A stretch of 64,000 bases of DNA from an uncultured Pseudomonadales bacterium. GTDB lineage: Bacteria > Patescibacteriota > Microgenomatia > UBA1400 > PJMF01. This document shows positions 990 through 64,000 of the stretch, one piece after another (positions within the stretch are counted from its first letter, which is position 1; each line of letters starts with the position of its first letter). The stretch spans positions 3,760-67,759 of the forward strand of contig CAYUQY010000004.1 of the NCBI GenBank assembly GCA_964447075.1, read 5' to 3'. The translations under genes were made by a program, and so were the position numbers. The notes under the pieces are model-generated. The model did not search any database. It was not told the DNA's origin and saw nothing but the letters and a program-made list of their open reading frames with translations.

Positions 990-2735
990 CTATCTTACTT
1001 CATAAAGATGTTCATTACTTATGGTATATTCCTTTTGTTTAGAAAAGGAATAATTTACATCTCCCAAATCAAACACAAATTGAGATCTAGAATCTATGCT
1101 TTCTCCTGAGAGAGTCGCACCCTTTCCCACAACTAGATAGCTGACATTATAGACATCCAAGTAAAATGTCACATAAAAAAGTGTCAGAAGATCATTCCCA
1201 ACGAGAGTGATGTGACTGTCAGTCTTGTTCTGCTGCAACAATATTAATCTTGCTTCTTTAGCGATAGTCTGTAATTCATTTGTTTCTTTTCCTAAATTGA
1301 CAAAATCTCCTGTCACTACTGAGTTGGAGAAATAAATAGAAAATGGCAAATAAAAAACAAAGTATATTTGTAACGCCCACTTTCGTAGCCAAATGAATGA
1401 GAATAAAAATATAGAAAGAGTTTGTAGTATCAAAAAATAATGCAAATGTTCTCTTACGGCAGTAAAGCCTCTCAGTTCGGGTGAATCAATACCACCAATA
1501 ACAATTTTATTCATGCTATACCAAAGAAAGAACGCCGGGGCAAATGAAAACAAGATGAATAGATAACTATTCTTAGCCCTTTTTGAAAATAATTCATTGC
1601 TGTTTAAATTATTCAACATTATCATTGCTACTATATAAAAAGATGGAAAGATGAAGCTATAGTACCTAAAATGCAACCTCCCCAATGCCTGGCTAGGATC
1701 TGTGTGAGAGACAATAACTGTAAACAAAGAAACGACTAATATCAAAGAAAATGTAAATAGTGAAATAAGAAACAAAAATGACTGACGCTCTTCTTCTTTA
1801 TTTGTGACTACATATTGACTTTTAACTCCAATATAGAATGAAAGATGTGTCCAAAATGTGTAAATGAGATACAAAACAGGTAAGCCAAATATCGATACTA
1901 AAGTGAAGACATGGTTAGAAAGTACTAGAAAAAAAGATGATAAAAGGATAAGACCCTGTTGCTGAATTCTGCTCAAGAATAAACTTGGAATTACATTATA
2001 AATACCAGCAGCACCAGTATTTGTTACAGTGTAAGTATCAATTGTTAGCATGCGCAGAATTAGATAAGAAGAAATAATTAGCGCTACAAAAAATAACATT
2101 TTTTTAATCAGCTGCCTTTTTGAACTCATTTGCCTAAAATAGGCAGAACCTACAAAATACAATAAAGGTGGGATAATTATAAGCGCATGTATTTTTACTA
2201 ATAACAATAGCGCCAATACAATGCTAGAAAATAATAAATATTTGAATGATGTGCTTTTTGCAAAGGAAACTAATAATAAGACTAGAAACCAAAACAAACC
2301 GAAGTACATTGATTCTGGCATGAAAAATGCAGAATACCAATTTTGTGGAGAATAAAAAGTCAGAAACGCAACAACTAGAGATTGCACAGGTCCAACATAT
2401 CTCTTGGCAATGAGATATACGCACGTCACGCCACTAGCAAAAAATAATAAATTTAGTAACCTCGAGCAATCATAATAGTCATCACCACAAAGATTAATAA
2501 TCTTATAGAATCTTGAGTAAGCAAATGAAGGAATAATGAATCCTTCTATACCAGATTTTCTCACAAGTGCTGAATACTCTACCTCATCACCGAGCACAAA
2601 AACATTTAAACCCTGTTGCCTCTGAAAGAATATTTGCACAGAAAAGATTAAAAAGAAAATGAGGATTACAAGAGTAATGCGTGATACGTATTTATTATAG
2701 AAATTATTAATTATATTAAGAGAATTTTTTTGCAT
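990..2735 (-). CDS. Polytopic membrane glycosyltransferase-like protein resembling the GT-C fold (ArnT/PMT-like; divergent)
   Basis: 581 aa and highly hydrophobic with many predicted TM helices. The first loop after TM1 carries GDEVEY, an acidic DE motif like the other ArnT/PMT-like paralogues here. It sits in an operon with the downstream GT2. Confidence 0.5.
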   Translation of the reverse strand: MQKNSLNIINNFYNKYVSRITLVILIFFLIFSVQIFFQRQQGLNVFVLGDEVEYSALVRKSGIEGFIIPSFAYSRFYKIINLCGDDYYDCSRLLNLLFFASGVTCVYLIAKRYVGPVQSLVVAFLTFYSPQNWYSAFFMPESMYFGLFWFLVLLLVSFAKSTSFKYLLFSSIVLALLLLVKIHALIIIPPLLYFVGSAYFRQMSSKRQLIKKMLFFVALIISSYLILRMLTIDTYTVTNTGAAGIYNVIPSLFLSRIQQQGLILLSSFFLVLSNHVFTLVSIFGLPVLYLIYTFWTHLSFYIGVKSQYVVTNKEEERQSFLFLISLFTFSLILVVSLFTVIVSHTDPSQALGRLHFRYYSFIFPSFYIVAMIMLNNLNSNELFSKRAKNSYLFILFSFAPAFFLWYSMNKIVIGGIDSPELRGFTAVREHLHYFLILQTLSIFLFSFIWLRKWALQIYFVFYLPFSIYFSNSVVTGDFVNLGKETNELQTIAKEARLILLQQNKTDSHITLVGNDLLTLFYVTFYLDVYNVSYLVVGKGATLSGESIDSRSQFVFDLGDVNYSFSKQKEYTISNEHLYEVR

Positions 2736-2753
2736 GGAATGTATTTAGTAAAA

Positions 2754-3875
2754 CTAGTAGAACAATCTATTTATCATCTTTTTATAAACTCCCCATAATT
2801 TATACCATCTCATGTTTTCAATTTGTTTCATTTCTTTTAAAATTTGTATGTATGAAGACTCTACTTGAGAATAGCTCCCCTGCAAATGCAGAGCCCAACT
2901 TTCCAATTTTTTATAAGTTTTTTTAATTTTAATTATTTCCGATACTTTTTGCTTGGTTACAATAATGCTTTTCTTATAGTCCTTAATTAGCTTGCTGTAT
3001 TTTTCTTCAAAGTTTTCACTGTATACTTTCAGATTAGTACTTCTTTTTGTGTCTGTGTCCTGTGAAATTTGATTTGATAATGCCAGAAAATAAGCAGCTA
3101 AACCTAATCTGAGATCCAGACCTTTAATATATCTAGTATTCCAAGCAGCATTATCCATCCTTGGCAAAGTTTTAAAGCTACATATAGCAACAAAAAAATC
3201 ACTTTGCTGTGCATTGATTTTCACTCCAGATTGTGTGCAAAATTCACAAGTAATTTTTTTGCCAAAGAAGTTAACAATTTTGCTGCTACTTATACCCTTA
3301 CTGCTACCAATACTTGATTGAAGTGTAAAGTTTTGTACATAAACATTAACAATTGGAAAGAATTTCCTTAACAAAGCGACAAATTCATCATAAGAATATT
3401 CTTTTACGTGAAAAGGATTCCCAGAAGGATATAGAGCTTTATTTGGAGTTGAGACTACAAAAACTCCGTCCTTATTTAACACCTCTTTTACTTCTTGTAA
3501 AAAAACATCAGGTCTTTCTAAATGCTCAATAAGTTCAAATGCAGTAACAACATCAACTTTTTTATTTTCTAAGTGTTTTGACAATTCTTGAACATTGACT
3601 ACACTGAAAGTAGTTTTTTTATTTCTATAGTGTTTTTCTGCATAAGAGATTGCTTGAGAGGAAATATCAAACCCCAGCACCGACTTTGAATTACCAATTT
3701 GGGAAAGTATGTGAGAACCATAACCTACACCACACCCAGCATCTAACACATCCTTATTTTTTACAATAGTACTAGCAAACATATATCTGATAATATGCTC
3801 AAAGTACATTGCCTCATCAGTAACCATTTTCGGGATAATGCGTTCACCAGTAAATATAATTTCTTCGCTTATCAT
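2754..3875 (-). CDS. Class I SAM-dependent methyltransferase with a long C-terminal Lys-rich coiled-coil-like tail
   Basis: Motif I VLDAGCGVGYGS (GxGxG) and FELIEHL. The C-terminal ~150 aa are K/E-rich heptad-like sequence (KLIKDYKKSIIVTKQKVSEIIKIKKTYKKLESW...). Confidence 0.7.
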   Translation of the reverse strand: MISEEIIFTGERIIPKMVTDEAMYFEHIIRYMFASTIVKNKDVLDAGCGVGYGSHILSQIGNSKSVLGFDISSQAISYAEKHYRNKKTTFSVVNVQELSKHLENKKVDVVTAFELIEHLERPDVFLQEVKEVLNKDGVFVVSTPNKALYPSGNPFHVKEYSYDEFVALLRKFFPIVNVYVQNFTLQSSIGSSKGISSSKIVNFFGKKITCEFCTQSGVKINAQQSDFFVAICSFKTLPRMDNAAWNTRYIKGLDLRLGLAAYFLALSNQISQDTDTKRSTNLKVYSENFEEKYSKLIKDYKKSIIVTKQKVSEIIKIKKTYKKLESWALHLQGSYSQVESSYIQILKEMKQIENMRWYKLWGVYKKMINRLFY

Positions 3876-3956
3876 ACCAAGTATGTCATTTTTGTGATAA
3901 TATCAGTCAAACCTAATTTGGGCTAGTGTCAGACTCCCAATCAGTAGACCTTATTT

Positions 3957-4136
3957 ATGAACTCAACTCAAGATAGAGAACTACGCTGTCTCCAAGAAAA
4001 ATCAGATGAAGTAGATGAAGAACTTTCAAAACTTGAGCAGTACTACCAACAGCTAAAAAAAGTACGCGCTGAGGTATTAAATAGTAGAATCTACAACATC
4101 TGGATCAAACTTCCAGTCATTATTCGCCATTTTTAG
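3957..4136 (+). CDS. Hypothetical small protein (59 aa) in a divergent intergenic region
   Basis: ATG at 3957 and TAG at 4134-4136, hand-translated: MNSTQDRELRCLQEKSDEVDEELSKLEQYYQQLKKVRAEVLNSRIYNIWIKLPVIIRHF. It has no recognisable family and no obvious SD, and is below the ORF-track length cutoff. Confidence 0.2.
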   Translation: MNSTQDRELRCLQEKSDEVDEELSKLEQYYQQLKKVRAEVLNSRIYNIWIKLPVIIRHF

Positions 4137-5582: not shown

Positions 5583-6923
5583 ATGAAAAAAATCTTACTC
5601 GTTGGACTTTCTCCACTGCCCATTCAAGACAGCCAATACAACCATGCTGGGGGAATACGAACATGGCTTTTTATCCAAAAAATCATTAAGATTTTCCCAG
5701 CATACCAACTGGATGTCCATCTTCTTCATGCTAATACTTTTGATAGCTCACCCTTTCAACCCACCTTTGATATGGGTCTCAAAAATATCACTATTCATAC
5801 AGCATCTGAAAATGCTTTTCACAAAGGATACCTTAAGCAAGTTCTCAGTAGACAACAATACGATGCTGTTATTAGTATAAATACTTACCCAAGTTACTTC
5901 ATGAGTTTAGAAGAACCTGCACAACCATGGTGGGCAGATTTGCAAGGTGATCCAGTTGCTGAGGGTCAGTGTAAATCATTTGCTGATTCCGACAACAATC
6001 ATTACATCAACGCAGTAGAAATGACCAAGTCTATTCTATCTCATGCAGATTATTTTTCATCTTGTTCTTATAGACAAAAACTAAGTATTATAGGACAACT
6101 TGGTATGGTAGGTAAACTTGTAAAAGAAAATGAAGGCATAGATCTTGTCTCTTCAATACCTTTGGCTGTCCCACCAGCTCCTCTAAACACTTACGCTAAA
6201 AATTCACGCTTTTTCCGTATTATTTGGATAGGTGGATACAACACTTGGGCGGACGGTTCAACACTTTTTAATGCGCTGTATTTTGCTTTCCAAGCAAGAG
6301 AGAATATTCGATTTATCTCAACTGGTGGCATTATTAAAGGACATAGCGATTATGTTTATAGTAATTTTCTGCAGGCAGTTCAAGATAGTGAGTACGCAAA
6401 TAGGTGCGAGTTAAAAGGGTATGTGGACAACGAAGAACTTGATCAGCTTTTGTTTACTTCTCACCTTGGTCTAAACATTGACCGCTTTAGTTATGAAGGC
6501 TATCTTGGTGGCAGAAACAGAATCAATACATTCACACACTACGGTCTACCAACCATTACCACAGCAACTTCAGAAATTCCACATGAGCTTGAAAAAATTG
6601 ACGCGGTAATGACATATCCCGCCGGTGATTATCACACGTGTGCACAAAAAATTATTTGGGCAGCAGATCATCCAAACGAAATTTCTGACATGCAGAAGAG
6701 AGCACAAAAATATCTATTAGAAGAAGCATATGCAGAAAAGCACTATCAGGCGTTCTATGAGTGGCTAGAAAACCCTCTCAAAAGCCATACTCTCCCACTT
6801 GACATTAGCGCTTCTGATCCCCCAAATACAAGAATTGACAAGAAACTCATGAGGTCCATATTGAAGTTTGGATACTCCAATGCCTTAAGGGCGTTTATTT
6901 CTGGTAATAGTGCAGAATCATAA
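5583..6923 (+). CDS. GT-B fold glycosyltransferase (GT4-like)
   Basis: The N-terminus MKKILLVGLSPLP...HAGGI looks like a GT-B N-domain. The C-domain ELKGYVDNEELDQLLFTSHLGLNIDRFSYEGYLGGRNRINTFTHYGLPTITTATSEIPHEL fits the GT4 E-x7-E-like region. Only 8 bp separate it from the preceding GT2. Confidence 0.55.
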   Translation: MKKILLVGLSPLPIQDSQYNHAGGIRTWLFIQKIIKIFPAYQLDVHLLHANTFDSSPFQPTFDMGLKNITIHTASENAFHKGYLKQVLSRQQYDAVISINTYPSYFMSLEEPAQPWWADLQGDPVAEGQCKSFADSDNNHYINAVEMTKSILSHADYFSSCSYRQKLSIIGQLGMVGKLVKENEGIDLVSSIPLAVPPAPLNTYAKNSRFFRIIWIGGYNTWADGSTLFNALYFAFQARENIRFISTGGIIKGHSDYVYSNFLQAVQDSEYANRCELKGYVDNEELDQLLFTSHLGLNIDRFSYEGYLGGRNRINTFTHYGLPTITTATSEIPHELEKIDAVMTYPAGDYHTCAQKIIWAADHPNEISDMQKRAQKYLLEEAYAEKHYQAFYEWLENPLKSHTLPLDISASDPPNTRIDKKLMRSILKFGYSNALRAFISGNSAES

Positions 6924-6927: not shown

Positions 6928-7701
6928 TCACAAAACATCCGCAAATGTACCCTCAGCCTTCCTAAAGAACCATAATCCGCCCACTACCATAGCAATCGCC
7001 ATAACAGCTCCAATTGCCAAACTTGCCCAATTTGGCCAGCCACCTGTAAACAAGACCTGTCTGTAGGCATTAATAAAAACAGCCATGGGGTTTAACCTAA
7101 ATGCAAATCGATACTGTTCTGGGAACATCTCGACTGTGTACATCACAGGAGTCAAGTAAAACCACAAGGTGAGTACCAAGGCGAAGAAGTACTGGACATC
7201 TCGATAGAATAGGTTACAGACAGAGAGTATCAGTGATAAGCCAAAAGTGAAGAGGGTCTGTATCAAGAGAATGGGAATTACTAGTAAGCTGTACTGACTC
7301 AGAGGTACCTGGAACCAGATAAGGAGTGCAAAGAAAGCTATCAAGGATAAGCAAAAATCGAAGAGTTTTGCTAAGAGTGAACTAATAACTAGAATTTCTC
7401 TAGGAAAATAAATTTTCTTGATTAAGCTTGCTCCGTCAACAAGTGAGGACTGAGCGCTATTTATCGAGCTCACAAAAAGAGTCCAAGGTAAAAGGCCGGT
7501 GTAGAGGAAGATTGGAAAGGGCACGCCTATGGCTGGTGACTTGAGAATATAGAGAAAGACAAAACTCATAATCATTATTTGGAAAAATGGGTTCAAGATA
7601 ATCCAAAAATAACCTAAGACTGACTGTTTGTAGCGAGCCTTGATCTCACGGATCGTCAGCTCGATGATCATGAAGTGGTATTTGTGAAAGAGTTGCAGCA
7701 T
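6928..7701 (-). CDS. wzm: ABC-2 type polysaccharide export permease (Wzm/TagG-like)
   Basis: 257 aa with 6 predicted TM helices. The start REIKARYKQSVLGYFWIILNP is typical of ABC-2 permeases. It lies immediately downstream of the Wzt-like ATPase. Confidence 0.8.
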   Translation of the reverse strand: MLQLFHKYHFMIIELTIREIKARYKQSVLGYFWIILNPFFQIMIMSFVFLYILKSPAIGVPFPIFLYTGLLPWTLFVSSINSAQSSLVDGASLIKKIYFPREILVISSLLAKLFDFCLSLIAFFALLIWFQVPLSQYSLLVIPILLIQTLFTFGLSLILSVCNLFYRDVQYFFALVLTLWFYLTPVMYTVEMFPEQYRFAFRLNPMAVFINAYRQVLFTGGWPNWASLAIGAVMAIAMVVGGLWFFRKAEGTFADVL

Positions 7702-7710
7702 AGTAATTAA

Positions 7711-8475
7711 TTAAACCAAGCTAATGTCAGTTAAGTACTGCTTAATAGCCTCATTAGTGACGCCATCGTACTGAAGATGACCTTCCTTAAGATACAAGAC
7801 CCTCGTACAGAACTCTTTCATAGTCTCCATACTGTGTCCCACAAAAATAATAGTCACGCCTTGGTCTCGGAACTCCTTCATTCTCTGTAGGCATTTCTGC
7901 TGAAACTGCAAATCTCCGACTGCCAACATTTCATCGACTAGAAGAATTTCTGGATCTAGTGATACAGCTACTGAGAAAGCCAAGCGCATGTACATACCAG
8001 AAGAATAAAACTTCACAGGTGTGTCCAAGAACTCACCCAGCTCACTAAAATCTACAATTTGTTTATACTTTAGCTTAACTTCATGGCGTGACATGCCCAA
8101 GATACTAGCATTTAGAAATATATTTTCTTGACCAGTGAGCTCGGGATGAAAACCCGCACCCAACTCGATGAGTGGGATCAAGCGTCCGCTGACACTGACT
8201 TTGCCAAAAGTTGGTTGGGAAACACCAGCGATCATCTTGAGAAGTGTTGATTTGCCAGCGCCATTTTTACCGATTACTCCAATGCTCTCTCCTTTGTTAA
8301 TCTGGAAACTAATATCTTTTAGAGCCGTAATGGATTCTCGTGTCTTTTTGCGACTCATCAAGGCTACCAACATTTCTTTAAGAGTCTTTTGGTGTTGAAG
8401 GTAAAAAGACTTAGTTACCTGGTTAAAGCTGATTACTGGAGAAGCTGAATCACTGTCTAACATGGGCATAAGCAT
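7711..8475 (-). CDS. wzt: ABC transporter ATP-binding protein for polysaccharide export (Wzt/TagH-like, short form without a C-terminal carbohydrate-binding domain)
   Basis: Walker A GKNGAGKST, signature YSSGMYMRLAF, Walker B ILLVDEMLAVGD and the H-loop FVGHSM are all present. At 254 aa there is no C-terminal extension. Confidence 0.9.
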   Translation of the reverse strand: MLMPMLDSDSASPVISFNQVTKSFYLQHQKTLKEMLVALMSRKKTRESITALKDISFQINKGESIGVIGKNGAGKSTLLKMIAGVSQPTFGKVSVSGRLIPLIELGAGFHPELTGQENIFLNASILGMSRHEVKLKYKQIVDFSELGEFLDTPVKFYSSGMYMRLAFSVAVSLDPEILLVDEMLAVGDLQFQQKCLQRMKEFRDQGVTIIFVGHSMETMKEFCTRVLYLKEGHLQYDGVTNEAIKQYLTDISLV

Positions 8476-13550: not shown

Positions 13551-13594
13551 GTGTTTAGACTGAGCTCTACCACCTAGTCACTTAGATTCTAAGC

Positions 13595-19735: not shown

Positions 19736-19746
19736 GGCTACCTCTT

Positions 19747-20472: not shown

Positions 20473-20566
20473 GTACCAGTGAACAACTTAAATCACGACA
20501 GCCAAGCAAGAAGTGATGCGTCTTTCACGCAAAACTGAAGTTGGTTGCCAGTAAACTGCAAACCGC

Positions 20567-22312: not shown

Positions 22313-22386
22313 CAAAGCTCTCACAGAGAGATAAAACTTGCACCAACTACCCCTACTGTTCATGAGTAACAAAGCTCTCACAGAGA
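22273..22386. repeat. Perfect 57-bp tandem direct duplication (2 copies: 22273-22329 and 22330-22386)
   Basis: Unit gataaaacttgcaccaactacccctactgttcatgagtaacaaagctctcacagaga, read twice back-to-back with no mismatch. It contains the stop of the + gene in copy 1 and the stop of the - gene in copy 2. Confidence 0.9.
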
Positions 22387-27052: not shown

Positions 27053-27053
27053 C

Positions 27054-37776: not shown

Positions 37777-37801
37777 ATCTTTTAGATTACTTTAGTTTAC
37801 T

Positions 37802-54062: not shown

Positions 54063-54087
54063 ACTCAAGATAGATATTGTACCTCTT

Positions 54088-55416: not shown

Positions 55417-55444
55417 CAAACTACACACTGCATAACAAATCAAA

Positions 55445-56422
55445 ATGTCTAAAAAAATACTTATCACCGGTGGAACAGGCTTTGTGGGCTCACATCTTAT
55501 CGAGCTACTGTCAAAGGAAGAGCCTGGAGCAACACTCCACAGCACTACTTTTAAAGCAGTTGATAGCTATGTCTCAGCGAACTTCCCCGAAGTTACTCAA
55601 CACAGTCTAAACTTAACCGACAAGCAAGCTACATTTGAGCTTATCTCTACGGTGATGCCCGACGAGCTCTACCACTTAGCCTCAATCTCAGCTGTGGGCT
55701 CTAGTTTTGAAAATGTGCGTGATATCCTGCACAACAATCTAACTCTTCACCTCAATGTCCTAGAGGCTGTCAAAGAGTGTTCTCCAGATACAAAGATGCT
55801 GAGTGTTGGCTCAGCTGAGTGCTACGGTCAATCCAATCTAAAGTTCTTGACTCCTCTAGATGAAACAGCCCTCCCTCTGCCCACCAATCCCTACTCTATT
55901 TCAAAGCTCACCCAAGAGATGCTCAGTCTTTACTATGCTCGCTCTTACAAGCTAAACATCGTCTGTGCTCGACCCTTCAATCATGTTGGTGAGCGCCAAA
56001 CACCCAACTTTGCAGTCAGCGCTTTTGCCTCGCAGATAGCTGCCATTGAGCTTGGCTTGCAGTCACACCTAAGTGTAGGCAATCTAGAGACAGTTCGTGA
56101 CTTTTCTGATGTTAAAGACATAGTGAGAGGCTACTCCACTCTGATGTCTGTTGGTCAAGGCTCGCAAATTTATAATCTTGGAAGTGGTAAAGGCTACCGT
56201 ATTCAAGATATACTCAATAAGTTGATCAGCTTAGCCAGGGTTGAGATCAAAGTTGAGAGTGACCCAAAGCGTATGAGACCTAGTGACACCGCTTGGCTGT
56301 TAGCTGACATTGGTAAAATAAAGTCTTTGGGTTGGTCACCAAAGATTGAGATCATGAACACATTGGAGAGAACTCTGGAGTACTGGCGAGATCAGAAGTC
56401 GCTCTTGGTAGAAAAAAAATAG
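55445..56422 (+). CDS. rmd: GDP-4-dehydro-6-deoxy-D-mannose reductase (Rmd-like short-chain dehydrogenase)
   Basis: ILITGGTGFVGSHL, YSISK, ARPFNHVGERQ, VGNLETVRDFSDVKDI, YNLGSG and DPKRMRPSD closely parallel Pseudomonas Rmd as I recall it. It sits directly upstream of gmd. Confidence 0.65.
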   Translation: MSKKILITGGTGFVGSHLIELLSKEEPGATLHSTTFKAVDSYVSANFPEVTQHSLNLTDKQATFELISTVMPDELYHLASISAVGSSFENVRDILHNNLTLHLNVLEAVKECSPDTKMLSVGSAECYGQSNLKFLTPLDETALPLPTNPYSISKLTQEMLSLYYARSYKLNIVCARPFNHVGERQTPNFAVSAFASQIAAIELGLQSHLSVGNLETVRDFSDVKDIVRGYSTLMSVGQGSQIYNLGSGKGYRIQDILNKLISLARVEIKVESDPKRMRPSDTAWLLADIGKIKSLGWSPKIEIMNTLERTLEYWRDQKSLLVEKK

Positions 56423-56475
56423 CTGGTGTAACTTAAAGAGTAGCTTTTTCTAGAGCTACTAGAGAGAAAAATTCT

Positions 56476-57450
56476 ATGAAAAAAGCTTTCATATCCGGAA
56501 TCACAGGACAAGATGGTTCGTACCTTGCAGAGTTGCTACTAGAAAAAGGCTACAGTGTCTACGGCTTGACTAGGCGCACTAGCACCCAGAACTTTGAGCG
56601 CATCGCTGCCGTCAGACATCATGCCAATCTAGAGCTAGTTTCAGGCGACCTACTCGATCAACATTCCTTGACCATTGCTCTTAAAGATATTCAGCCTGAT
56701 GAGGTCTACAACTTGGCAGCTCAATCTTTCGTCAAAGCCAGCTGGGATCAGCCAGTCTTGACAGGAGAGTTTACGGCTCTAGGTGTGACAAGGATGCTTG
56801 AAGCTGTCAGATTTGCCTGTCCCAAAGCTAAGTTTTATCAAGCTAGCTCATCAGAAATGTTTGGCAAAGTCCAAGCTGTTCCCCAGACAGAAAGTACCCC
56901 TTTCTACCCTCGCTCTCCCTACGGTGTCGCCAAAGCCTACGGACACTGGATCACAGTTAACTATCGTGAGTCATTTGATATGTTTGCTGTCTCTGGTTTG
57001 CTGTTCAATCACGAGTCTCCTAGAAGAGGCCTTGAGTTTGTTACTCGCAAGATAGCTAACGCAGTAGCTAGAATCAAGCTAGGTAAACAAGAAAAAATTG
57101 AGCTAGGCAACCTTGGTGCCAAAAGAGACTGGGGATACGCTAAGGACTATGTCGAAGCCATGTGGCTAATGTTGCAACAAGCCAACCCTGAAGACTATGT
57201 GATTGCAACAGGTGAGACACACTCTGTAAGAGAGTTTCTAAAATCAGCTTGTGATGTGGTCGGCATCAAAGACTGGCAGAATATTTATCTTCACAATCCT
57301 AAGTACGATCGTCCAGCTGAAGTAGATCTCCTGATAGGTGATGCAAGCAAAGCTAAAAGAGAACTTGGTTGGCAGCCAACTGTTTCATTCGAAGAACTAG
57401 TTAAGATTATGGTCGAAGCAGAGTTAGAAAATGAAGGAAAAAACCCATGA
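56476..57450 (+). CDS. gmd: GDP-mannose 4,6-dehydratase
   Basis: [29 protein letters not shown] and [10 protein letters not shown] are Gmd signatures. Confidence 0.9.
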
Positions 57451-58604
57451 AGAAGGCTATAGTCATCATTCCAACCTACAACGAAAAAGAGAACATCGGA
57501 CCAACCCTCTCAGCTGTGAGCAAGGTATTTGAGCAGATAAAGTCATGGGAGATGCAGGTTTTGGTTGTAGACGACAGCTCTCCAGACGGAACCGGTCAGG
57601 TGGTAATAGATCTACAGAAACAGTACCCTTGGCTAGAGCTTCTCTCCAATCCCAAAAAATCTGGTTTAGGTGGAGCTTACCTTAAGGCCATGGAGCATGC
57701 CTTTGGCAAACTAGGAGCTGACATCGTGTTTGAGTTTGACGCTGATCTACAACATGACCCAAACAAAATTCCTGCCTTCTTGGAAAAAATTGATCAGGGA
57801 GCAGATATGGTTCTGGGCTCACGTTACATGAAGGGTGGAAGTATTCCTGCCTCTTGGGGAGTACACCGCAAATTTTTAAGTTTTTTTGGCAATCTATTGA
57901 TTAGAGCTCTCTTTCTAAGCCCTCACCTCAGTGACTGGACATCTGGTTATAGAGCTATTACAAGGAAAGTTTATGATGTAGCTCATCTTGGTCTTCAGTC
58001 TGAGAGATTCACTGGCTACGCATTTCAGATCGGTTTTCTCTACAAGGCCTTCAGAGCTGGATTTAAGATTGAAATGGTGCCATACCACTTTGCTGATCGA
58101 ACAGTTGGTATCTCCAAAATGAGCTCTGAGTATGCCAAGAACACCATAATTTTCATCTTTAAAATTCGTATTTTGGAGATTTTGGCTAGCAGAAAATTCA
58201 AATTTTTGGTCGTAGGGTCGATAGGAGCTGGAGTTCAGCTAAGCTTCCTGACTTTATTTAGATCACTCATGCTCTTTGAGCTAGCCTATATCTTGAGTAT
58301 TGAGATGGCAGTGATCTCCAACTTCTTGCTCAGCAATACTTGGACCTTTGCAGATCGAAAGCTTCCCTTGTCAGCTTGGCCAGCCAAGTTTTTGACTTTC
58401 AATCTCTCTTCTGCCGGATCAATTATCATTCAAACGATTATCGGCATAACTGGTAAAAATACCATTGGACTGATAGCCCTTTTTACTCTGCCGATACTCA
58501 ACATTTTGGTAGACACTGGGCATGTTTATGCTATCGTAGGCATCCTAGTTGGTCTGGTCTGGAACTTCTACGCTTACTCCAAGTTTGTCTGGAAAAAATC
58601 GTGA
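57447..58604 (+). CDS. Polyprenol-phosphate sugar synthase (DPM1/GtrB-like GT2) fused to a C-terminal GtrA-like 4-TM domain
   Basis: [41 protein letters not shown] and GSRY form the GT2 part. The C-terminal 130 aa have 4 TM helices with [18 protein letters not shown]...[11 protein letters not shown], GtrA-family-like. A GAAGGA SD lies upstream. Confidence 0.8.
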
Positions 58605-58658: not shown

Positions 58659-60227
58659 ATGAAGTACTCTCCAAGCTTGACAATTTCCAACATCAAGAGC
58701 TTTGTCGTGAGACGTACACTCTACGACTGGTTGCTACTAGCTTGCCTCAGCCTTGCTAGTTTTTTAAGAGTTTGGAATCTACCCAACACCATCCAGTTTC
58801 TCAGTGACCAAGGGAGAGACGCCATCGTAGTCATGAGATTTATACGTTTTTTCGACCCAATGCTGATCGGTCCTGTCACTAGTAACGGCAACATGTATCT
58901 AGGTCCGGCTTACTACTACCTCATGGCTCCATTCTTGGCTCTTACTTTTCCATCTCCTATTGGTCCGGCTTACGGGGTGGCTATTTTTGGAGTCTTGACG
59001 GTCTTTTTGATTTACTATTTAGGTAGAGAAATGGTAGGTAAATCCGCAGCAGTCTTGGCTGCTTTTATGGCTAGCATTTCTGGAGTTCTAGTAGAGTATT
59101 CACGTTTTAGCTGGAATCCAAACTTGGCCCCTCTGGTCATGATGTTGTTGATTTGGTCACTCTTTCGATTTTGGACCAGAAGTAGATGGTACTTTGTCTT
59201 GAGCATACTTTGGTTCTCACTTCTCATTCAGCTCCACTACGTAACTTTACTAACTGCTCCAGTCATCGGTTTTGTTTGGCTTGCCTGTTTGATAGAACAG
59301 ACTCGTTTGAAGAAAGAAAAAGTGCACAGGGCTTGGTCGACACTCAAACTATTTTTGCCTTCCACCTTGAGTGGTATTTCTGTGTTCATACTCTCACTCC
59401 TCCCACAAATTATTTTTGAGTTTCTGCATAATTTTATTAATACCTCCTCATTTTTAAGCTTCATAGGAAGAGAGGACGGATCTTTTACCAGAGTAGGAAC
59501 TAGCATCAAGTTCATGAGAGTTTTGGGGGAGCTCCACGGCCGGAGTATGCAGATATTATTTGAGATGTTCATCGGCACCTCACGTCAGCTAAACACTTGG
59601 CTAGTAGTACTGGTAATTTTAGGTAGTATCTTTCTCTGGAGATCACTCAAAAATCAGAGTGACAAAAAAGCTTTTAGCATCACTGTTCTTTCTCTAGTCA
59701 CTGCTGCAGTAGGTTTGGCATTTTATCGTGGTAGTGTTTTTCACCACTACGTTCTCTTTACGATTCCTGTCACTTTCTTGCTCTTTGGTCAGATAATTAT
59801 CTTTTTATGGAAGAAGTTCCTTGTCAAGATACTTCTGCTTGCGTTCCTAAGTTACTTCATCCTCTGGAACATATCTACTGTCCCACTTAAGTCTCAAGGC
59901 TGGAAGTTGCGCGACATAGAGCGTGTTGCCAACAGTGTTTTAGCAAGAGTTAAACCAGGAGAAAAGTACAATATTGTCCTACTTTCTGAGATAAAAGACT
60001 TTGAAGGGACTAACTACCGCTACTTTTTAGAAGCAAGTGAAAAACCACCTGTCTCAATTGAGAAAAGAGGTGAAACTGAAACTCTCTTTATCATCAATGA
60101 GGATGGGAAACTCAAAGACACGCCCAATGACTCCCCCATCTATGAGATAGTAGTTTTCCCCAATCACAATCCAAGTGAAGTTTACAGTGACTCAGGGGGT
60201 CCAAGAATTACAGTCTTAAGAAAGTAA
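58659..60227 (+). CDS. Uncharacterised polytopic membrane protein, subfamily C (D-x-G-R-D-A / YYYLMAPF motifs); putative Gtr-type GT-C transferase
   Basis: 522 aa. QFLSDQGRDAIVVMRFIRFFDPMLIGPVTSNGNMYLGPAYYYLMAPF parallels ORF 27054. It lies between the two GtrB-like GT2 genes. Confidence 0.45.
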   Translation: MKYSPSLTISNIKSFVVRRTLYDWLLLACLSLASFLRVWNLPNTIQFLSDQGRDAIVVMRFIRFFDPMLIGPVTSNGNMYLGPAYYYLMAPFLALTFPSPIGPAYGVAIFGVLTVFLIYYLGREMVGKSAAVLAAFMASISGVLVEYSRFSWNPNLAPLVMMLLIWSLFRFWTRSRWYFVLSILWFSLLIQLHYVTLLTAPVIGFVWLACLIEQTRLKKEKVHRAWSTLKLFLPSTLSGISVFILSLLPQIIFEFLHNFINTSSFLSFIGREDGSFTRVGTSIKFMRVLGELHGRSMQILFEMFIGTSRQLNTWLVVLVILGSIFLWRSLKNQSDKKAFSITVLSLVTAAVGLAFYRGSVFHHYVLFTIPVTFLLFGQIIIFLWKKFLVKILLLAFLSYFILWNISTVPLKSQGWKLRDIERVANSVLARVKPGEKYNIVLLSEIKDFEGTNYRYFLEASEKPPVSIEKRGETETLFIINEDGKLKDTPNDSPIYEIVVFPNHNPSEVYSDSGGPRITVLRK

Positions 60228-60306
60228 TCTAAAGATATAGCTTTCGCAAATAGGATTGACTACATGAAGCTAGTTAAAACTCTGACACATTGCTTTGGGA
60301 GAATTT

Positions 60307-61071
60307 ATGTTAAGTAATAAAATCTTTTTATCAGTTGTTGTCCCTTCATTTAATGAAAAGGCCAACATCGAGCGTCACTGCCTAGAGCTTGTTTCTGAGT
60401 ACTTATCCAAGCAGTCGTACTCTTGGGAGGTAATCTTGAGCGACGATGGCTCAACAGACGGAACTTGGGAGGATCTGGAGAATTTTGCCAAGACTCATCC
60501 TGGATTTAGAGCTCTTGCTAACACCCACGCTGGCAAAGGACCAACTGTTCAATCTGGTATGTTGGCAGCATCTGGGGAGTGGAAGCTTTTTACAGACTTT
60601 GATCAATCTACACCACTAAGTGAGATTGAGAAGCTTTTTCCTTTTAGCGATAGGTTTGAGGTTGTAATTGGGTCACGTGAGATTGCGGGCGCGTCCCGCG
60701 CCCGCGAACCCATTCATCGCCACCTCATGGGTAGGGTCTGGAACTTGACCGTCCAGGCATTAGCTGTGCCAGGAATTCTAGACACTCAATGCGGCTTCAA
60801 GCTCTTCAAAGGAACAGTCTCAGATCAACTTTTTAAAAACTTAGTTGTCTACTCACGCTCCAACTCTACTTCCAATGCTTTCACTGGAGCCTTCGATGTA
60901 GAGCTACTTTTTTTAGCCAGAAAACTTGGTTACAAAATTAAAGAGGTTCCCATCAGCTGGAAACACTACACCACTGCTCGCGTTAGTCCCGTTCGCGACT
61001 CACTTCGAATGTTGCGTGATATTGTTCGAATTCTCTGGGCAAACTCTAGAGGACTCTATAAGATTAGCTAG
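60307..61071 (+). CDS. Polyprenol-phosphate sugar synthase-like family 2 glycosyltransferase (DPM1/GtrB-like)
   Basis: LSVVVPSFNEKANIERHCLELV, VILSDDGSTDGT, DFDQSTP and GSRE. The start is moved to the ATG at 60307, which has a GGGAG SD 6 nt upstream. The ORF-track start is 60295. Confidence 0.8.
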   Translation: MLSNKIFLSVVVPSFNEKANIERHCLELVSEYLSKQSYSWEVILSDDGSTDGTWEDLENFAKTHPGFRALANTHAGKGPTVQSGMLAASGEWKLFTDFDQSTPLSEIEKLFPFSDRFEVVIGSREIAGASRAREPIHRHLMGRVWNLTVQALAVPGILDTQCGFKLFKGTVSDQLFKNLVVYSRSNSTSNAFTGAFDVELLFLARKLGYKIKEVPISWKHYTTARVSPVRDSLRMLRDIVRILWANSRGLYKIS

Positions 61072-61178: not shown

Positions 61179-64000
61179 ATGTTTAACAAATCACTCTTCT
61201 ATCTTTTCGTCGGATTATACTTGGTTGCTTTTCTTTTCTATGCCCTTTTTTCCTTTTCCCTAACCGACCCAAACTTGAGCTTCACGTCTTGGTTGCCATA
61301 CTGGAAGTTTCAGTGGTGGATGTGGGCCACTTTCTTTCACAACTCATATCTTCTATCTTCCAGTTATCTCAGCTTAGTTACTTTCATATTTGCTTGCTAC
61401 TTAGCCATTTACTATCTACTTCTCAAATCTACAGATAATTTTGGTCTGAAAAGAATAATCATCGGAGTCACGGCTTTGATACTAGGGATGCTAGTTATTT
61501 CCAACAATGCTTTATCTCATGACATGTTCAACTATATTTTTAATGCCAAAATGGTGATGGTGTATCAGGCGAATCCTCATCTTCAAACAGCCCAAGAGTT
61601 TGCAGCTAGTGATACCTGGGTGAGGTTTATGCACAACACTCACACTCCAGCCCCATATGGTTTTGGTTGGACAGTCTGGTCATTGATTCCTTTCATACTT
61701 GGTTTACAAAAGTTCACCATTACTTGGCTACTCTTCAAACTCTGGAGTTTGTGTAGCTGGTTTTTTATGATCTGGTCAATAAATTTCTTGTCGAAAAAAC
61801 TCTCAGGAAAGGAGATAAGCTTGGCATCCTGGTTTTTAATTTTTGCCAATCCTCTTATTTTGATTGAGATACTTGGAAATGGTCACAATGATCTCTGGAT
61901 GATGGCTCCTGCTGTGTGGTCGCTAGGGATACTCTTAACAGCTTCTAAGAATGGAAAAGTATCACTCAAAAACATCTTTTTTTCTGGTGTCTTACTCTTT
62001 CTCTCCATAAGTACCAAGCTAGCTTCTCTAACATTACTTCCCATTTGGCTCATGGTCACTGGAGTAGTTGTAGCTCGGGTTTATTTGAGTAAAAATTCTC
62101 TTGTTCCTAAGCTCTGGATTAAGCTTCAGCCTCATGTGCCATTTTTCTGTTCACTACTTCTTTTTGGACCTCTCTTCACTGCTCAGTCTCAACAGTTTTT
62201 ACCCTGGTACTTAAGCTGGGTATTAATCTGGATTCCAGTTACTTTTGGTCAAAATTGGTGGAAAAGATCATTAATTTTTCTGAGTTTTTTGAGCTTGCTA
62301 CGTTACTATCCTTTCTTGGCAGTGGGTGAGTACACACCAGCTGTAATTTTGCAACAAAAAATGATCACCTGGGTGCCATTTGGAGTCTGGTTGTGCTTAG
62401 AGGGTCTTGTTCTCGCCCTAAATTTTACCAAAATCAATCTTCTACTTTCTGGTCAAATCAAAAAATTGCGATTCATTCTGCGTTTATGGCCATTTGTTTT
62501 GCTGATCTTGGTGTATCTCTTGTTACACTTTTATCGTCTAGATTTCTTTCCTGTTTTTGCTGATGAATCAATTTATATTCGCTGGGCTCAATTAATCATT
62601 GATGATCCTGGTAGGTACGCTTTTTTTGCCCTCAATGATGGCAAGACGCCACTTTTTATGTGGCTACTCGTACCCTTGCAGTTCTTATTTAGCAATCAAC
62701 TGGTAGCTGGTAGAGTTTTGGCAGTTCTGGTGGGTTTACTCCAGCTGTGGGTCGTACAAGCTACGATCAAGTCTTGTGGTGGTCGTAAAAGTACTCAGCT
62801 TCTTGGCATGACTATGGTTTGCTTTTTGCCCTTTTGGTTTTTTCACCATCGTATGGCACTTATTGATGGTTTATTGACTTTATGTTTATCTGGAGCAACT
62901 TATTTTCTAGTTAGATTCCACCAGAGCGTCCAGTCTAGTCACTCTCAACATCTTAGACTTAAGCTGATAGCTTTGTCCGGAGCTTGTTTCGGTCTTGCTC
63001 TTTTAACCAAACTGCCAGCTCTTTTCTTTTCACCAGTATTTTTCTTGTCCAATTTGTTCTTTTACCCAGTTAGTTCTAGAAGTCTCAGCGTCTGGAAAAG
63101 TAATTTTTGGTACTGTTTACTTGGAGCTGGGTTGGGGCTCTTGATGTTTACCTTGCTAGCACTTCACCCTGCTTTTGGTCAGCTTTTCAGAAGAAGTGGT
63201 GACTTTACTTTTACCATCGTTGAGTCTCTCAAGGGTGGGTGGTTGCACTCCCTAACCCAGAGTAGTTATGCCCTGGCTGGTGTGATCAACTACATGAGCT
63301 TGCCCGTGGTTATTCTGTCCTTGTGGGGTGTGTTTATGGATAAAACTAGACGCTACAGCGGGTTTTTTATCCTTTGTGCTCTCTGCTACCTGCTTCCTTT
63401 CGCGCTGCTTGGCAAGATAGTCTTTATTCGTTACTTACTTCCTCTTAGTTTTTTTCTAACTGTGAGCGCGGCTCTGACTTTTCAGCGACTCTATGAGCAG
63501 TGGTTTGTAGATGTGTCTCAGCTGTCCAAAAAAGTTTTAGCTGCTATTTTTTTGACCACACTCCTCAGTGGAGCTGCTCAAACTTCTAGTAGTTTTATCA
63601 TTCCTTTACTCACAAGTTATGACTCAGTGCCTTTTAGCCCTTCCGACCGAACTCAGTATCTGGAAGACTGGTCTTCAGGGCATGGTATTTTTGAAACAGT
63701 GGAGTACATACGAAAACAAGCACTTGATCACACCATTTCTATTGCCACTGAGGGCAGCTTCGGGACTCTACCAGATGGAATTCTCCTGCTTTTACATCGT
63801 AGTGATCTAAGGAACATTTCTGTCTCAGGCATAGGTCAGCCAATTGCAGGACTTTCTCCAGAGTTTCTGGCTCACTCCAAAAAATTTGATCAAACAATTC
63901 TAGTTGTTAACTCACATCGTTTACTGATGTCGTTAGGCGACAGTCCAAAAATCATAGAACAGTGTCGACCCCACAACGCTCCATGCTTCCAGGTTTTCGA
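61179..64000 (+). CDS. Very large polytopic membrane protein, partial (>940 aa); apparent tandem of two GT-C-like modules (DUF2029/GT87-like N-module plus ArnT/PMT-like C-module)
   Basis: Hand translation from ATG 61179 in frame 0 to the window end found no in-frame stop. Frame alignment was checked at 62100, 63000 and 63960. The second half restarts with TM-loop-DE architecture (LRFILRLWPFVLLILVYLLLHFYRLDFFPVFADESIYIRWAQL). The ORF track missed it because no stop lies inside the window. Confidence 0.55.
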   Translation, partial: MFNKSLFYLFVGLYLVAFLFYALFSFSLTDPNLSFTSWLPYWKFQWWMWATFFHNSYLLSSSYLSLVTFIFACYLAIYYLLLKSTDNFGLKRIIIGVTALILGMLVISNNALSHDMFNYIFNAKMVMVYQANPHLQTAQEFAASDTWVRFMHNTHTPAPYGFGWTVWSLIPFILGLQKFTITWLLFKLWSLCSWFFMIWSINFLSKKLSGKEISLASWFLIFANPLILIEILGNGHNDLWMMAPAVWSLGILLTASKNGKVSLKNIFFSGVLLFLSISTKLASLTLLPIWLMVTGVVVARVYLSKNSLVPKLWIKLQPHVPFFCSLLLFGPLFTAQSQQFLPWYLSWVLIWIPVTFGQNWWKRSLIFLSFLSLLRYYPFLAVGEYTPAVILQQKMITWVPFGVWLCLEGLVLALNFTKINLLLSGQIKKLRFILRLWPFVLLILVYLLLHFYRLDFFPVFADESIYIRWAQLIIDDPGRYAFFALNDGKTPLFMWLLVPLQFLFSNQLVAGRVLAVLVGLLQLWVVQATIKSCGGRKSTQLLGMTMVCFLPFWFFHHRMALIDGLLTLCLSGATYFLVRFHQSVQSSHSQHLRLKLIALSGACFGLALLTKLPALFFSPVFFLSNLFFYPVSSRSLSVWKSNFWYCLLGAGLGLLMFTLLALHPAFGQLFRRSGDFTFTIVESLKGGWLHSLTQSSYALAGVINYMSLPVVILSLWGVFMDKTRRYSGFFILCALCYLLPFALLGKIVFIRYLLPLSFFLTVSAALTFQRLYEQWFVDVSQLSKKVLAAIFLTTLLSGAAQTSSSFIIPLLTSYDSVPFSPSDRTQYLEDWSSGHGIFETVEYIRKQALDHTISIATEGSFGTLPDGILLLLHRSDLRNISVSGIGQPIAGLSPEFLAHSKKFDQTILVVNSHRLLMSLGDSPKIIEQCRPHNAPCFQVF

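Follow-up and report, generated by a model that had tools for sequence, protein, structure and literature searches.

In Gram-positive bacteria it is established that a GT-A lipid-phosphate-sugar synthase, a flippase and a GT-C glycosyltransferase act together on wall polymers (PMC8035078). Such three-component systems include GtrA/GtrB/Gtr*, CsbB/GtcA/YfhO, GtlA/GtlB, CsdA-F and GacI/J/K/L, and known genomes carry about 1–4 GT-A/GT-C pairs over several Mb, with three in B. subtilis and three in L. lactis (PMC8035078). The window studied here, meaning the whole 64-kb stretch of DNA that was analysed, shares their part list: a GT2 synthase, a GtrA-type flippase element and an adjacent PMT_2/YfhO-type GT-C. 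The targets of these systems are wall polymers, and the window likewise has an LCP ligase nearby. It differs from them in holding 15 GT-C genes for about three synthases within 64 kb and in having no free-standing GtrA gene, the domain being fused to 57447 only (genes are named here by their first coordinate). In addition, its PIG-V-like and ALG3/PimE-like types are absent from the GT-C table of the three-component review (PMC8035078).

A second comparison is offered by the mycobacterial and corynebacterial array of PimE, MptA/B/C, EmbA/B/C, AftA-D and Rv3779, with Ppm1, PpgS and DPA synthesis. There, two donors are shared by the GT-C enzymes of the PimE/Mpt/Emb/Aft set, much as a few donors would probably be shared in the window. 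However, sequence identity between the two arrays is just 9–12%, and none of the window genes themselves could be assigned to the Emb, Aft or GT87 sequence families. The window belongs to a roughly 1-Mb episymbiont-type genome, whereas the host of the other array is a mycolate actinobacterium; its genes are far more tightly clustered and it contains GT-C/GT-C fusions. With the Arn pathway of lipid A (Ugd-ArnA-ArnC-ArnT), one module of the window, M1, shares the overall logic and some of the families, namely a UDP-glucose dehydrogenase, an SDR, an ArnC/DPMS-like GT2 and a PMT_2-type GT-C, but M1 is without ArnB, ArnD and the formyltransferase, includes a GDP-mannose 4,6-dehydratase (GMD) and has three GT-C and two GT2 where the Arn pathway has one of each. 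In relatives, the nearby LCP and rhamnose genes suggest that the acceptor is more likely a wall polymer of Gram-positive type than lipid A. Finally, the N-terminal module (N-module) of gene 61179 and the family of gene 9474 are small (~400 aa), all-membrane GT-C proteins and in this resemble the eukaryotic and archaeal lumenal mannosyltransferases ALG3, ALG6, PIG-M and PIG-V (GT-C class B); they differ in being bacterial and in adjoining, or being fused to, large class A GT-C. In the literature searched for a GT-C expansion in CPR bacteria we found no specific description, and one Microgenomates genome paper noted 29 glycosyltransferase genes (PMC7143001).

Results

A sequence-only reading of the window had counted about 16 GT-C paralogues. 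We amended this number to 15 genes with 16 modules, which occupy 26.6 kb, or 41.5% of the 64-kb window; the predicted ORF coordinates listed earlier were all confirmed, with only the start of the third GT2 amended. Family HMMs, BLAST links and predicted folds support a GT-C identity for all 16 modules. Direct Pfam matches above cut-off were obtained for 990, 14473, 20567, 17906, 39471, 58659 and the C-terminal module (C-module) of 61179, while 10696 and the N-module of 61179 were assigned by fold. Genes 16091, 28580, 22353, 24124, 30487 and 27054 were connected to directly matched modules by BLAST (E ≤ 1e-8), and 9474 was assigned through the Pfam matches of its family members. An NCBIfam scan of the GT-C genes gave no usable names, and PDB sequence-profile searches with families B and C, the N-module and 9474 returned nothing meaningful. 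By hydropathy, each module has 6–10 strongly hydrophobic segments and 61179, with its two modules, has 15, and the AlphaFold models of the GT-C proteins were all-helical membrane bundles. The HMM matches and predicted folds ruled out Wzy, WaaL or transporter identities, so that the proposal of GT-C membership was borne out with no paralogue resembling these other proteins. Alignments with orthologues from other genomes also upheld the predicted conservation of an acidic motif in loop 1, where one or more conserved acidic residues were found in every GT-C family of the window. From its position directly after TM1, this loop is probably extracytoplasmic, and the adjacent DPMS-like GT2 genes are consistent with the use of lipid-phosphate sugars by these enzymes at the outer face.

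The largest group, family A (14473, 16091, 20567, 22353, 24124, 28580 and 30487), is held together by all-against-all BLASTP links of 1e-5 to 1e-43 at 23–30% mutual identity, and its profile had ArnT as the sole match among PDB sequences (E 0.01). An acidic pair occupies one alignment column, being DE in six of the seven genes and EE in 28580; gene 990, the C-module of 61179 and every one of their orthologues from other genomes likewise have DE in this column. Hence the earlier claim of a first-loop DE in eight ArnT/PMT-like genes held for seven, including the C-module, and failed for 28580. The PMT_2 or PMT cut-off was passed by 990, 14473, 20567, 58659 and the C-module, whereas 16091 and 28580 scored below it and 22353, 24124, 30487 and 27054 gave no match to either Pfam model. 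Within the family, the ArnT/PMT-like 14473 (14473–16077, minus strand; RDE; PMT_2 29.4 bits, above cut-off) has an orthologue in L002/L023 scoring 373 bits, compared with 143 bits for its best in-window paralogue. Gene 16091 (16091–17881, minus; WDE; PMT_2 17.9 bits, below cut-off), whose orthologue scores 408 bits, is linked at 3e-43 to 28580 (28580–30490, minus; WEE; PMT_2 18.7 bits, below cut-off), and 20567 (20567–22312, plus; RDE) exceeded both the PMT_2 (31 bits) and the PMT (29.1 bits) cut-offs. The most divergent member, 22353 (22353–24191, minus; HDE), has neither a Pfam match nor the FGDxKLP motif; it aligns with family A and has BLAST links to 16091 (1e-8) and 28580 (6e-10). Gene 24124 (24124–25863, minus; VDE), also without a Pfam match, is linked to 20567 (8e-27) and 28580 (9e-24), and 30487 (30487–32169, minus; WDE), the final gene of module M2, is linked to 28580 (4e-31) and has orthologues in L017, L020 and L021. 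Outside the family, the singleton 990 (990–2735, minus), with GDE in loop 1 and ~8 hydrophobic segments, is of the PMT_2 type (30.3 bits against a cut-off of 26.1); together with the alignment of its DE, this agrees with its earlier description as a divergent DE-type gene.

Family B was recognized as GT-C, as proposed, through Pfam for 17906 and 39471 and through its fold for 10696. Gene 17906 (17906–19735, plus) scored 30.1 bits with PTPS_related (cut-off 26.4), and 39471 (39471–41279, minus), the first gene of M2, scored 31.8 bits with YfhO (cut-off 28.5) and has orthologues at 314–330 bits. The YfhO/PTPS_related-like 10696 (10696–12417, minus), whose C-terminal part comprises a beta-sandwich domain and a final TM helix, gave no YfhO/PTPS_related Pfam match itself, and many of its homologues carry PF10131. 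An HD pair is invariant in the family (H50-D51 in 39471 numbering). Directly next to 10696, and overlapping this upstream gene by 8 nt, lies the small GT-C gene 9474 (9474–10703, minus; 409 aa). It had been called PIG-V-like, and the name fits its family: among 34 members about 43–61% identical to 9474, PIG-V (Mannosyl_trans2, PF04188) was matched by 17, PMT_2 by 13, GT87 by six and ALG10 by four, and P0124, 51–52% identical to 9474, scored 32 bits with PF04188 (cut-off 22.4). However, 9474 itself fell below detection, with no Pfam match even at E ≤ 10, so that it counts as a divergent relative of PIG-V through its family, short of certified membership. D70 is invariant in this family. Although both 9474 and the N-module of 61179 are small GT-C, hhalign found no relation between their families (probability 1.7%), and we rejected them as close paralogues. 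Furthermore, in other CPR genomes a 10696-like and a PIG-V-like protein are fused into one of 917–951 aa, as seen in about 19 of the 120 best homologues of 10696. Two GT-C pairs are fused in some genomes and split in others, and the partners of each probably work as a physical pair: a family B enzyme and the PIG-V-like protein in one, the ALG3/PimE-like N-module and the PMT-like C-module in the other.

In the window, the second of these pairs reads as a single gene. In 61179, the N-module (61179–62468, plus) is a small ALG3/PimE-like GT-C with D115 invariant in NALSHDxFNY, and the C-module (62469–64000, plus), scanned separately from the N-module for Pfam scores, is of the PMT_2/PMT type with ADE (PMT_2 38.1 and PMT 33.7 bits, both above cut-off). 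The open frame of 940 codons runs past the end of the window, the gene stop lying ~12 codons further, and the product annotated in the source (P0365) has 938 aa. None of the 16 members of the N-module family matched any model in the Pfam library used, ALG3 and GT87 included, and the Pfam entry of the family in precomputed annotation is PF26314. Its likeness to ALG3/PimE is one of fold only, at 10–12% identity, with ALG3, GPI-MT-I and ALG6 among the best fold matches.

Family C also proved to be GT-C as suggested, 58659 (58659–60227, plus; part of M1) by its PMT_2 match (38.6 bits) and 27054 (27054–28571, minus; GDD...GRD motif) by a BLAST link to 58659 (6e-21). Orthologues of 58659 score 340–447 bits in at least 14 loci. 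The acidic residues of this family are D50 and D54, with DD or DQ where family A has DE, and 27054 has a weak NCBIfam match to Agl23 (3.8e-4); because of these two features, some members with the GT-C fold may lack a transferase role. Precedents for this are PIG-U in the GPI transamidase and Agl23 in archaea. Extended to several of the paralogues, this would leave pseudo-enzymes or accessory subunits (scaffolds, flippase helpers or acceptor binders) and far fewer than 16 transferase activities, which we regard as very improbable, since the loop-1 acids are invariant as expected of active GT-C enzymes (D115 of the N-module, H50-D51 of family B, D70 of the PIG-V-like family and D/E-E of family A).

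We then considered the candidate donor synthases. Three GT2 genes had been described as GtrB/DPM1-like; all three contain PF00535 and adjoin GT-C genes, and each has its best PDB match in the archaeal dolichol-phosphate-mannose synthase of P. furiosus (DPMS, 5mlz), in agreement with a DPMS/ArnC/GtrB-like character that is strong for 57447 only. Gene 57447 (57447–58604, plus; GT2 101.6 bits) carries a fused GtrA/DPMS TM domain (GtrA_DPMS_TM, PF04138, 47.6 bits) and matched 5mlz at 4.3e-38 over residues 3–331, followed by ArnC at 1e-13. The short 19747 (19747–20472, plus; 241 aa; PF00535 74 bits) sits between GT-C genes 17906 and 20567; its 5mlz match was 1.5e-6, ArnC ranked under three GpgS entries among its PDB matches, and its best NCBIfam matches, AglJ, PpgS and Dol-P-hexose transferase (1e-23 to 1e-18), were all below cut-off. 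For the third gene, the listed ORF starts at a TTG at 60295 instead of at 60307 as given earlier (60295–61071, plus; 258 aa; PF00535 72.6 bits). This candidate second lipid-phosphate-sugar synthase of M1 matched 5mlz at 6.8e-12 and ArnC at 7e-8, another glycosyltransferase entry ranking between the two. In relatives, its place is invariably after or before the family C gene on one side and the N-module gene on the other. Family scans detected no GtrA or TM domain in 19747 or 60295; known synthases without such a domain exist, for example PpgS and the catalytic domain of Ppm1. Matches of all three GT2 genes to specific NCBIfam synthase models were far below cut-off (PpgS 80/370 bits, ArnC 49/529 bits), and PgfS was among the best for 57447 and 60295. 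Thus 57447 appears to be the only strong polyprenol-phosphate-sugar synthase of the three, and the weaker 19747 and 60295 could be ordinary GT2 enzymes.

To place the locus, it was compared with 22 related genome loci, all 22 of which come from Patescibacteria MAGs, some of them misnamed. The source is therefore a CPR genome, Pacebacteria/Microgenomates-like Patescibacteria, as had been guessed from the letters alone. Relatives have GT-C clusters of their own, with at least five genes in 21 kb of L023 and six in 11 kb of L024; the expansion is unusual relative to Firmicutes, but it recurs within the CPR lineage of the source. The idea of a single combinatorial extracytoplasmic system was too simple. 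The window consists of at least three gene modules, each with its order conserved in other CPR genomes and each combining GT-C enzymes with cytoplasmic GT2/GT4 enzymes and a Wzx or Wzm/Wzt exporter, with an LCP ligase and sugar-nucleotide genes nearby. At least 11 CPR genomes share the M1 order UGDH-SDR-GMD-DPMS-GTC-GT2-GTC-GTC, and M2 and M3 each recur in 2–3. The sugar-nucleotide genes of M1 (53965–57450, plus) encode UDP-glucose dehydrogenase, an SDR and GMD (TIGR01472, 441 bits; cut-off 415). The cytoplasmic assembly genes of M2 (32196–39433, minus) were identified with Pfam as a GT2, a GT4, a methyltransferase, three GT2 and a Wzx-type flippase, the last (37802–39433) with MOP flippase NCBIfam matches; the M2 genes stand in the same order in L017, L020 and L021. 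In M3, cytoplasmic GT4 and GT2 genes identified with Pfam (12477–14467, minus) lie between family B and family A genes in L002/L023 and are also present in L024. The window further encodes a Wzm/Wzt-type glycopolymer ABC exporter of permease and ATPase (6928–8475, minus; ABC2_membrane and ABC_tran), with A. aeolicus Wzm (9e-17), a mycobacterial O-antigen/LPS-type ABC permease and TarG as the best PDB matches of the permease, and an LCP (LytR-CpsA-Psr) glycopolymer-to-peptidoglycan ligase (41499–42572, plus; PF03816, 103.7 bits). There are about 11 cytoplasmic GT2/GT4 enzymes in all. Gene 5583 (446 aa), considered as a further membrane glycosyltransferase, was rejected as it has no hydrophobic segment and no family match. 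Among the ORFs of at least 150 aa in the window, Wzx was present and no Wzy, O-antigen ligase, WecA/MraY or Bac_transf was found; with no initiating phosphoglycosyltransferase, Wzy or WaaL-type ligase detected, the pathways cannot be closed from the window sequence. Genes for PBP1C, alpha-2-macroglobulin and TrmD (53397–54110, minus) break up the locus, so the adjacency of the modules may be partly coincidental.

The scores of orthologues exceed those of all in-window paralogues 2–5 times, and a neighbour-joining tree groups each with its window gene, indicating that the GT-C enzymes are old and individually conserved. Wherever orthologues were found the paralogues are ancient, and recent duplication was rejected, the paralogues being 23–30% identical and the orthologues closer. 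This bears on whether the genes are exchangeable accessory cassettes that follow no fixed pathway and vary the surface antigens as a defence against phages or in host recognition, as the Gtr clusters of Shigella and Salmonella do. Such a variable decoration arsenal would fit the region 17906–30490, whose seven GT-C, a GT2 and an acyltransferase have almost no orthologues in the loci compared (one weak 28580 match in L020). It would also fit the left end of the window, where 990 sits at a GC of 0.32 compared with about 0.42 elsewhere, and the differing module content of relatives. However, where orthologues are found gene order is strictly conserved across genomes only 36–48% identical, the paralogues are old, and we noticed neither mobile-element genes nor repeats or tRNA insertion sites in the window. 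On balance we find this explanation distinctly improbable.

Another possibility is that the targets are proteins. PMT-like GT-C enzymes would then O-glycosylate secreted or surface proteins (S-layer, pilins, Ser/Thr-rich regions), the paralogues differing in the protein classes that they recognise, for which actinobacterial Pmt and the streptococcal Pgf system are precedents. The Pfam model PMT (protein O-mannosyltransferase) is matched above cut-off, in addition to PMT_2, by 20567 and by the C-module of 61179, the PgfS matches of 57447 and 60295 point the same way, and Ser/Thr-rich regions are glycosylated by GT-C enzymes in streptococci (PMC12041528). Nevertheless, we consider it unlikely: the PMT scores are low and PMT_2 matches commoner, characterised Gram-positive PMT_2 members act mostly on teichoic acids and wall polysaccharides (PMC8035078), no obvious acceptor protein is encoded within the modules, and the Wzx, Wzm/Wzt, LCP, rhamnose and many cytoplasmic glycosyltransferase genes indicate a polysaccharide.

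Discussion

Collectively, we favour as reasonably probable that the locus is a cell-envelope glycan super-locus for the extracytoplasmic assembly and branching of wall-linked glycopolymers. The donor sugars, acceptors, linkages, topology and pairing in this proposal are those that we infer for a locus whose families and folds, motifs, gene order and lineage were observed. Precursors would be supplied by sugar-nucleotide enzymes (RmlB/RmlD, UDP-glucose dehydrogenase, GDP-mannose dehydratase and SDRs), and cytoplasmic GT2/GT4 enzymes would build lipid-linked glycans that are exported through the Wzx flippase or the Wzm/Wzt ABC exporter. In parallel, single sugars would be loaded onto polyprenol phosphate by 57447 and probably by 19747 and 60295 (DPMS/ArnC-like), with the GtrA-type domain of 57447 probably aiding the flipping of its product. 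At the outer face, the 15 GT-C enzymes would transfer these lipid-phosphate sugars to the growing glycans, each with its own acceptor or linkage, before the LCP enzyme attaches the finished polymer to peptidoglycan. Since the GT-C enzymes outnumber the donor synthases by about 5:1, it is probable that a few donors serve most of them and that acceptor or linkage sets them apart. In this scheme the multi-component logic of the Gram-positive type is known, and the conserved CPR modules and the split or fused GT-C pairs appear to be new.

A bolder extension, which we put forward as possible though doubtful, is a lineage-specific assembly line outside the cell in Pacebacteria/Microgenomates-type CPR bacteria, in which obligate GT-C pairs polymerise and branch a surface heteropolysaccharide. 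Each pair would consist of a small ALG3/PIG-V-like and a large PMT/YfhO-like module, split or fused, and would draw on few polyprenol-phosphate sugars. If true, the line would be the counterpart, in these bacteria, to the mycobacterial LAM/arabinogalactan machinery or to the eukaryotic ALG pathway in the ER lumen, and it might form the surface with which an episymbiont contacts its host.

Much of bacterial diversity belongs to the CPR, whose members have genomes of ~1 Mb and are believed to spend their lives attached to other cells. The small ALG3/PIG-V-like GT-C found beside PMT-like ones are new bacterial examples, and the eight-gene M1 and the split or fused GT-C pairs are portable targets for heterologous expression and structural work. 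That more than 26 kb of GT-C genes lie in 64 kb of a small genome, in modules that are conserved, implies that an elaborate extracytoplasmic glycan is central to the biology of these bacteria.

Results

Composition of the GT-C gene set

The window is densely coded (coding fraction 96%, 44 genes), and genes for membrane glycosyltransferases of the GT-C fold, designated here by their start coordinates, make up 26.6 kb or 41.5% of it. Every gene named in an earlier sequence-only reading was found where that reading had placed it, and its roughly 16 GT-C paralogues resolved into 15 genes with 16 modules. All-against-all BLASTP reproduced its grouping exactly: family A (14473, 16091, 20567, 22353, 24124, 28580 and 30487; 23–30% identity, E 1e-5 to 1e-43), family B (10696, 17906 and 39471) and family C (27054 and 58659), with 990, 9474 and 61179 showing no link to other GT-C genes of the window. 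Two family A ORFs, 22353–24191 (−) and 24124–25863 (−), overlap by 68 nt as listed; the true start of 22353 probably lies downstream and the overlap is smaller, because several in-frame Met codons occur among its first 20 codons. The GC content is about 0.42 across the window and 0.32 in the first 4 kb (1–4000), which contains a rhamnosyltransferase-like GT2 gene truncated at the start of the window, the GT-C gene 990 and a methyltransferase gene. This end may be laterally acquired or a variable end of the locus.

With the curated Pfam cut-off as the criterion for a direct family match, PMT_2 was matched by 990 (30.3 bits), 14473 (29.4 bits), 20567 (31 bits, with PMT at 29.1 bits), 58659 (38.6 bits) and the C-terminal half of 61179 (38.1 bits, with PMT at 33.7 bits), PTPS_related by 17906 (30.1 bits) and YfhO by 39471 (31.8 bits). 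The PMT_2 matches of 16091 and 28580 fell under the cut-off, and other family members were joined to Pfam-matching genes by BLAST at E ≤ 1e-8. Gene 9474, described earlier as PIG-V-like, had no Pfam match of its own; the description held at the level of its family (34 proteins, ~43–61% identical to 9474), in which 17 of 34 matched PIG-V/Mannosyl_trans2, 13 PMT_2, six GT87 and four ALG10, all of which we take to be GT-C families of one Pfam clan. Structure modelling was applied to the two least supported modules, 10696 and the N-module of 61179 (61179–62468), and the N-module family has a recent Pfam entry, PF26314.

Alignments revealed that the acidic pair following the first transmembrane segment forms one column across family A, 990, the C-module of 61179 (62469–64000) and family C. 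Six family A genes, 990, the C-module and all their orthologues from other genomes have DE at this position; 28580 has EE, and the family C members have DD or DQ. Thus 990 is indeed a DE-type gene, and the first-loop DE ascribed to eight ArnT/PMT-like genes is present in all except 28580. An invariant first-loop Asp was also found in the N-module (D115), family B (H50-D51, 39471 numbering) and the 9474 family (D70). Resemblances to PIG-U and Agl23 could suggest that the paralogues are partly non-catalytic, but invariant loop-1 acidic residues in every family make this very improbable. None of the GT-C paralogues resembled Wzy, WaaL or transporters; with the family matches and the conserved loop motif, the GT-C observation was therefore confirmed.

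Candidate donor synthases

Three GT2 genes, each directly adjoining GT-C genes, had been proposed as GtrB/DPM1-like. The product of 57447 combines a GT2 domain (101.6 bits) with a GtrA/DPMS transmembrane domain (47.6 bits) and aligns over 330 residues with the Pyrococcus dolichol-phosphate-mannose synthase 5mlz (4e-38), followed by ArnC and GtrB, so that its prediction as a polyprenol-phosphate-sugar synthase is well supported. The short GT2 proteins 19747 and 60295 are plausible candidates for the same role, with 5mlz as best solved relative (1.5e-6 and 6.8e-12, respectively). For 60295 one other glycosyltransferase entry and then ArnC follow, while for 19747 ArnC ranks below three GpgS entries and the top NCBIfam matches are AglJ, PpgS and Dol-P-hexose transferase. 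All NCBIfam scores of these candidates were far under the family cut-offs.

Relatives and age of the paralogues

With 61179 as query, a search covering one genome per species yielded 22 loci (36–48% identity), all from Patescibacteria/CPR MAGs, including Pacebacteria, Paceibacterota, Microgenomates and Woesebacteria; for 9474, 10696 and the N-module, too, every named homologue came from Patescibacteria, in agreement with the CPR affinity anticipated from sequence. Seven of the loci (L001, L003, L008, L010, L012, L020 and L021) are titled 'uncultured Pseudomonadales' and L002/L023 'Vitreimonas sp.'. These proteobacterial labels are probably wrong, since gene content and similarity to named Pacebacteria/Patescibacteria records indicate CPR.

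The relatives are equally rich in GT-C genes, with at least five in 21 kb of L023 (a 1.41-Mb contig) and six in 11 kb of L024, and we therefore regard GT-C density as a trait of the lineage and not an oddity of this contig. By comparison, three GT-A/GT-C pairs are described in each of B. subtilis and L. lactis (PMC8035078).

Orthologues scored far above the best in-window paralogues for 14473 (373 versus 143 bits), 16091 (408 versus 154), 10696 (442 versus 87), 39471 (330 versus 147) and 58659 (447 versus 86). In a neighbour-joining tree, a phylogeny having been proposed with the sequence-only reading, these window genes each paired with their own orthologue and internal branches were long. 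The duplications are therefore old wherever orthologues were captured. Among the fetched loci there was no orthologue of 17906, 20567, 22353, 24124, 27054 or 990, and 28580 was matched weakly, in L020 alone.

Conserved modules

Mapping all window proteins against the ORFs of the fetched loci showed the window to be made up of several conserved modules, of which three emerged. M1 comprises UGDH, SDR, GMD, the DPMS-like 57447, family C 58659, GT2 60295 and the N- and C-modules; at least 11 genomes share this gene order exactly, two of them with RmlB/RmlD upstream. M2 (family B 39471, Wzx, three GT2, GT4, GT2 and family A 30487) has the same order in L017, L020 and L021, and the weak 28580 match occurs in L020 only. 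M3 (epimerase, PIG-V-like 9474, family B 10696, GT4, GT2 and family A 14473 and 16091) is present in L002/L023 and partly in L024. A fast-changing decoration arsenal appears distinctly unlikely for the parts where this could be tested, as synteny is conserved there and the paralogues are old, but such an arsenal may account for 17906–30490 and the low-GC left end.

The stretches separating the modules encode a Wzm/Wzt-type exporter (with Wzm, a mycobacterial O-antigen/LPS-type ABC transporter permease and TarG as its best PDB matches), an LCP ligase, RmlB, RmlD and acyltransferase_3, together with the unrelated PBP1C, alpha-2-macroglobulin and TrmD. Adjoining the exporter and directly downstream of GT2 gene 4195, 5583–6923 (+) encodes a protein of 446 aa that lacks hydrophobic segments and matched nothing in Pfam or NCBIfam. 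The segment 44851–53387 (+) contains a classical pbpC-A2M pair, here in the middle of a glycan locus of a CPR genome. Its class A PBP scores 497.3 bits with the PBP_1c equivalog model (cut-off 494.2). The gene directly downstream, which overlaps it, encodes a bacterial alpha-2-macroglobulin of 2119 aa; this protein has bMG10, A2M, bait-region and MG2 domains, and its CTEQ thioester motif lies near residue 1649. The ORF at 53397–54110 (−) overlaps the annotated UGDH start; a match to TrmD, the tRNA m1G37 methyltransferase (167 bits), ruled out that it is noise. Because TrmD occupies this interval, UGDH probably starts near 54088, where the matches to its family models begin.

Split and fused GT-C pairs

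Gene 61179 is an open frame of 940 codons running past the window end; its full product, P0365, is 938 aa as called in public data and extends past the window by 12 residues. All other genomes examined that carry both parts have two adjacent genes instead (N-module ~400–450 aa, C-module ~500–560 aa), often overlapping by a few bases in different frames. A search of 1.84 billion representative proteins gave 1,993 matches, and of the best 150 none was fused apart from the protein of the source itself. At the junction near 62440–62480 (+) the parts share one frame with no stop codon, adjoining an A6 run, and the fusion is either real and lineage-specific or a single-base error. An in-frame TTG there could still start the C-module separately.

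Conversely, 10696 and 9474 (9474–12417, −) are separate genes in the window with an 8-nt overlap, and they form single proteins of 917–951 aa in about 19 of the best 120 homologues of 10696, among them P0260, P0286, P0294 and P0330 of other CPR genomes. In both pairs a small all-membrane GT-C enzyme is combined with a larger GT-C enzyme that carries an extracytoplasmic domain. As two independent pairs occur both split and fused, the partners probably act in physical association.

Discussion

Some matches to PMT models and to PgfS-like GT2 proteins would fit protein O-glycosylation as the main role, but the gene context points to polysaccharide and we consider that role unlikely. In polysaccharide assembly, nucleotide sugars would first be synthesised, and lipid-linked glycans would be built by cytoplasmic GT2/GT4 enzymes and exported via Wzx or Wzm/Wzt. 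DPMS-like GT2 enzymes would provide polyprenol-phosphate monosaccharides, to be added outside the membrane by GT-C enzymes, and LCP would anchor the polymer to peptidoglycan. No gene for an initiating phosphoglycosyltransferase, Wzy or WaaL was found within the window; these functions may be encoded outside the window, or polymerase or ligase roles may fall to some of the GT-C enzymes.

In mycobacteria, many GT-C enzymes (PimE, Mpt, Emb and Aft) build a polymer from two common donors. Taking the fold matches into account as well, this array is probably the closest functional analogy, because the window likewise sets many GT-C enzymes against few donor synthases, at about five per synthase.

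The superfamily of every component and the working principle are already known, and for this uncultivated organism we infer the function of the GT-C locus. In the literature searched, four features are apparently undescribed: the scale and clustering of GT-C genes in a ~1 Mb genome, the conserved modules M1–M3, the occurrence of small GT-C enzymes resembling ALG3 or PIG-V alongside PMT/YfhO-like ones, and the split and fused GT-C pairs.
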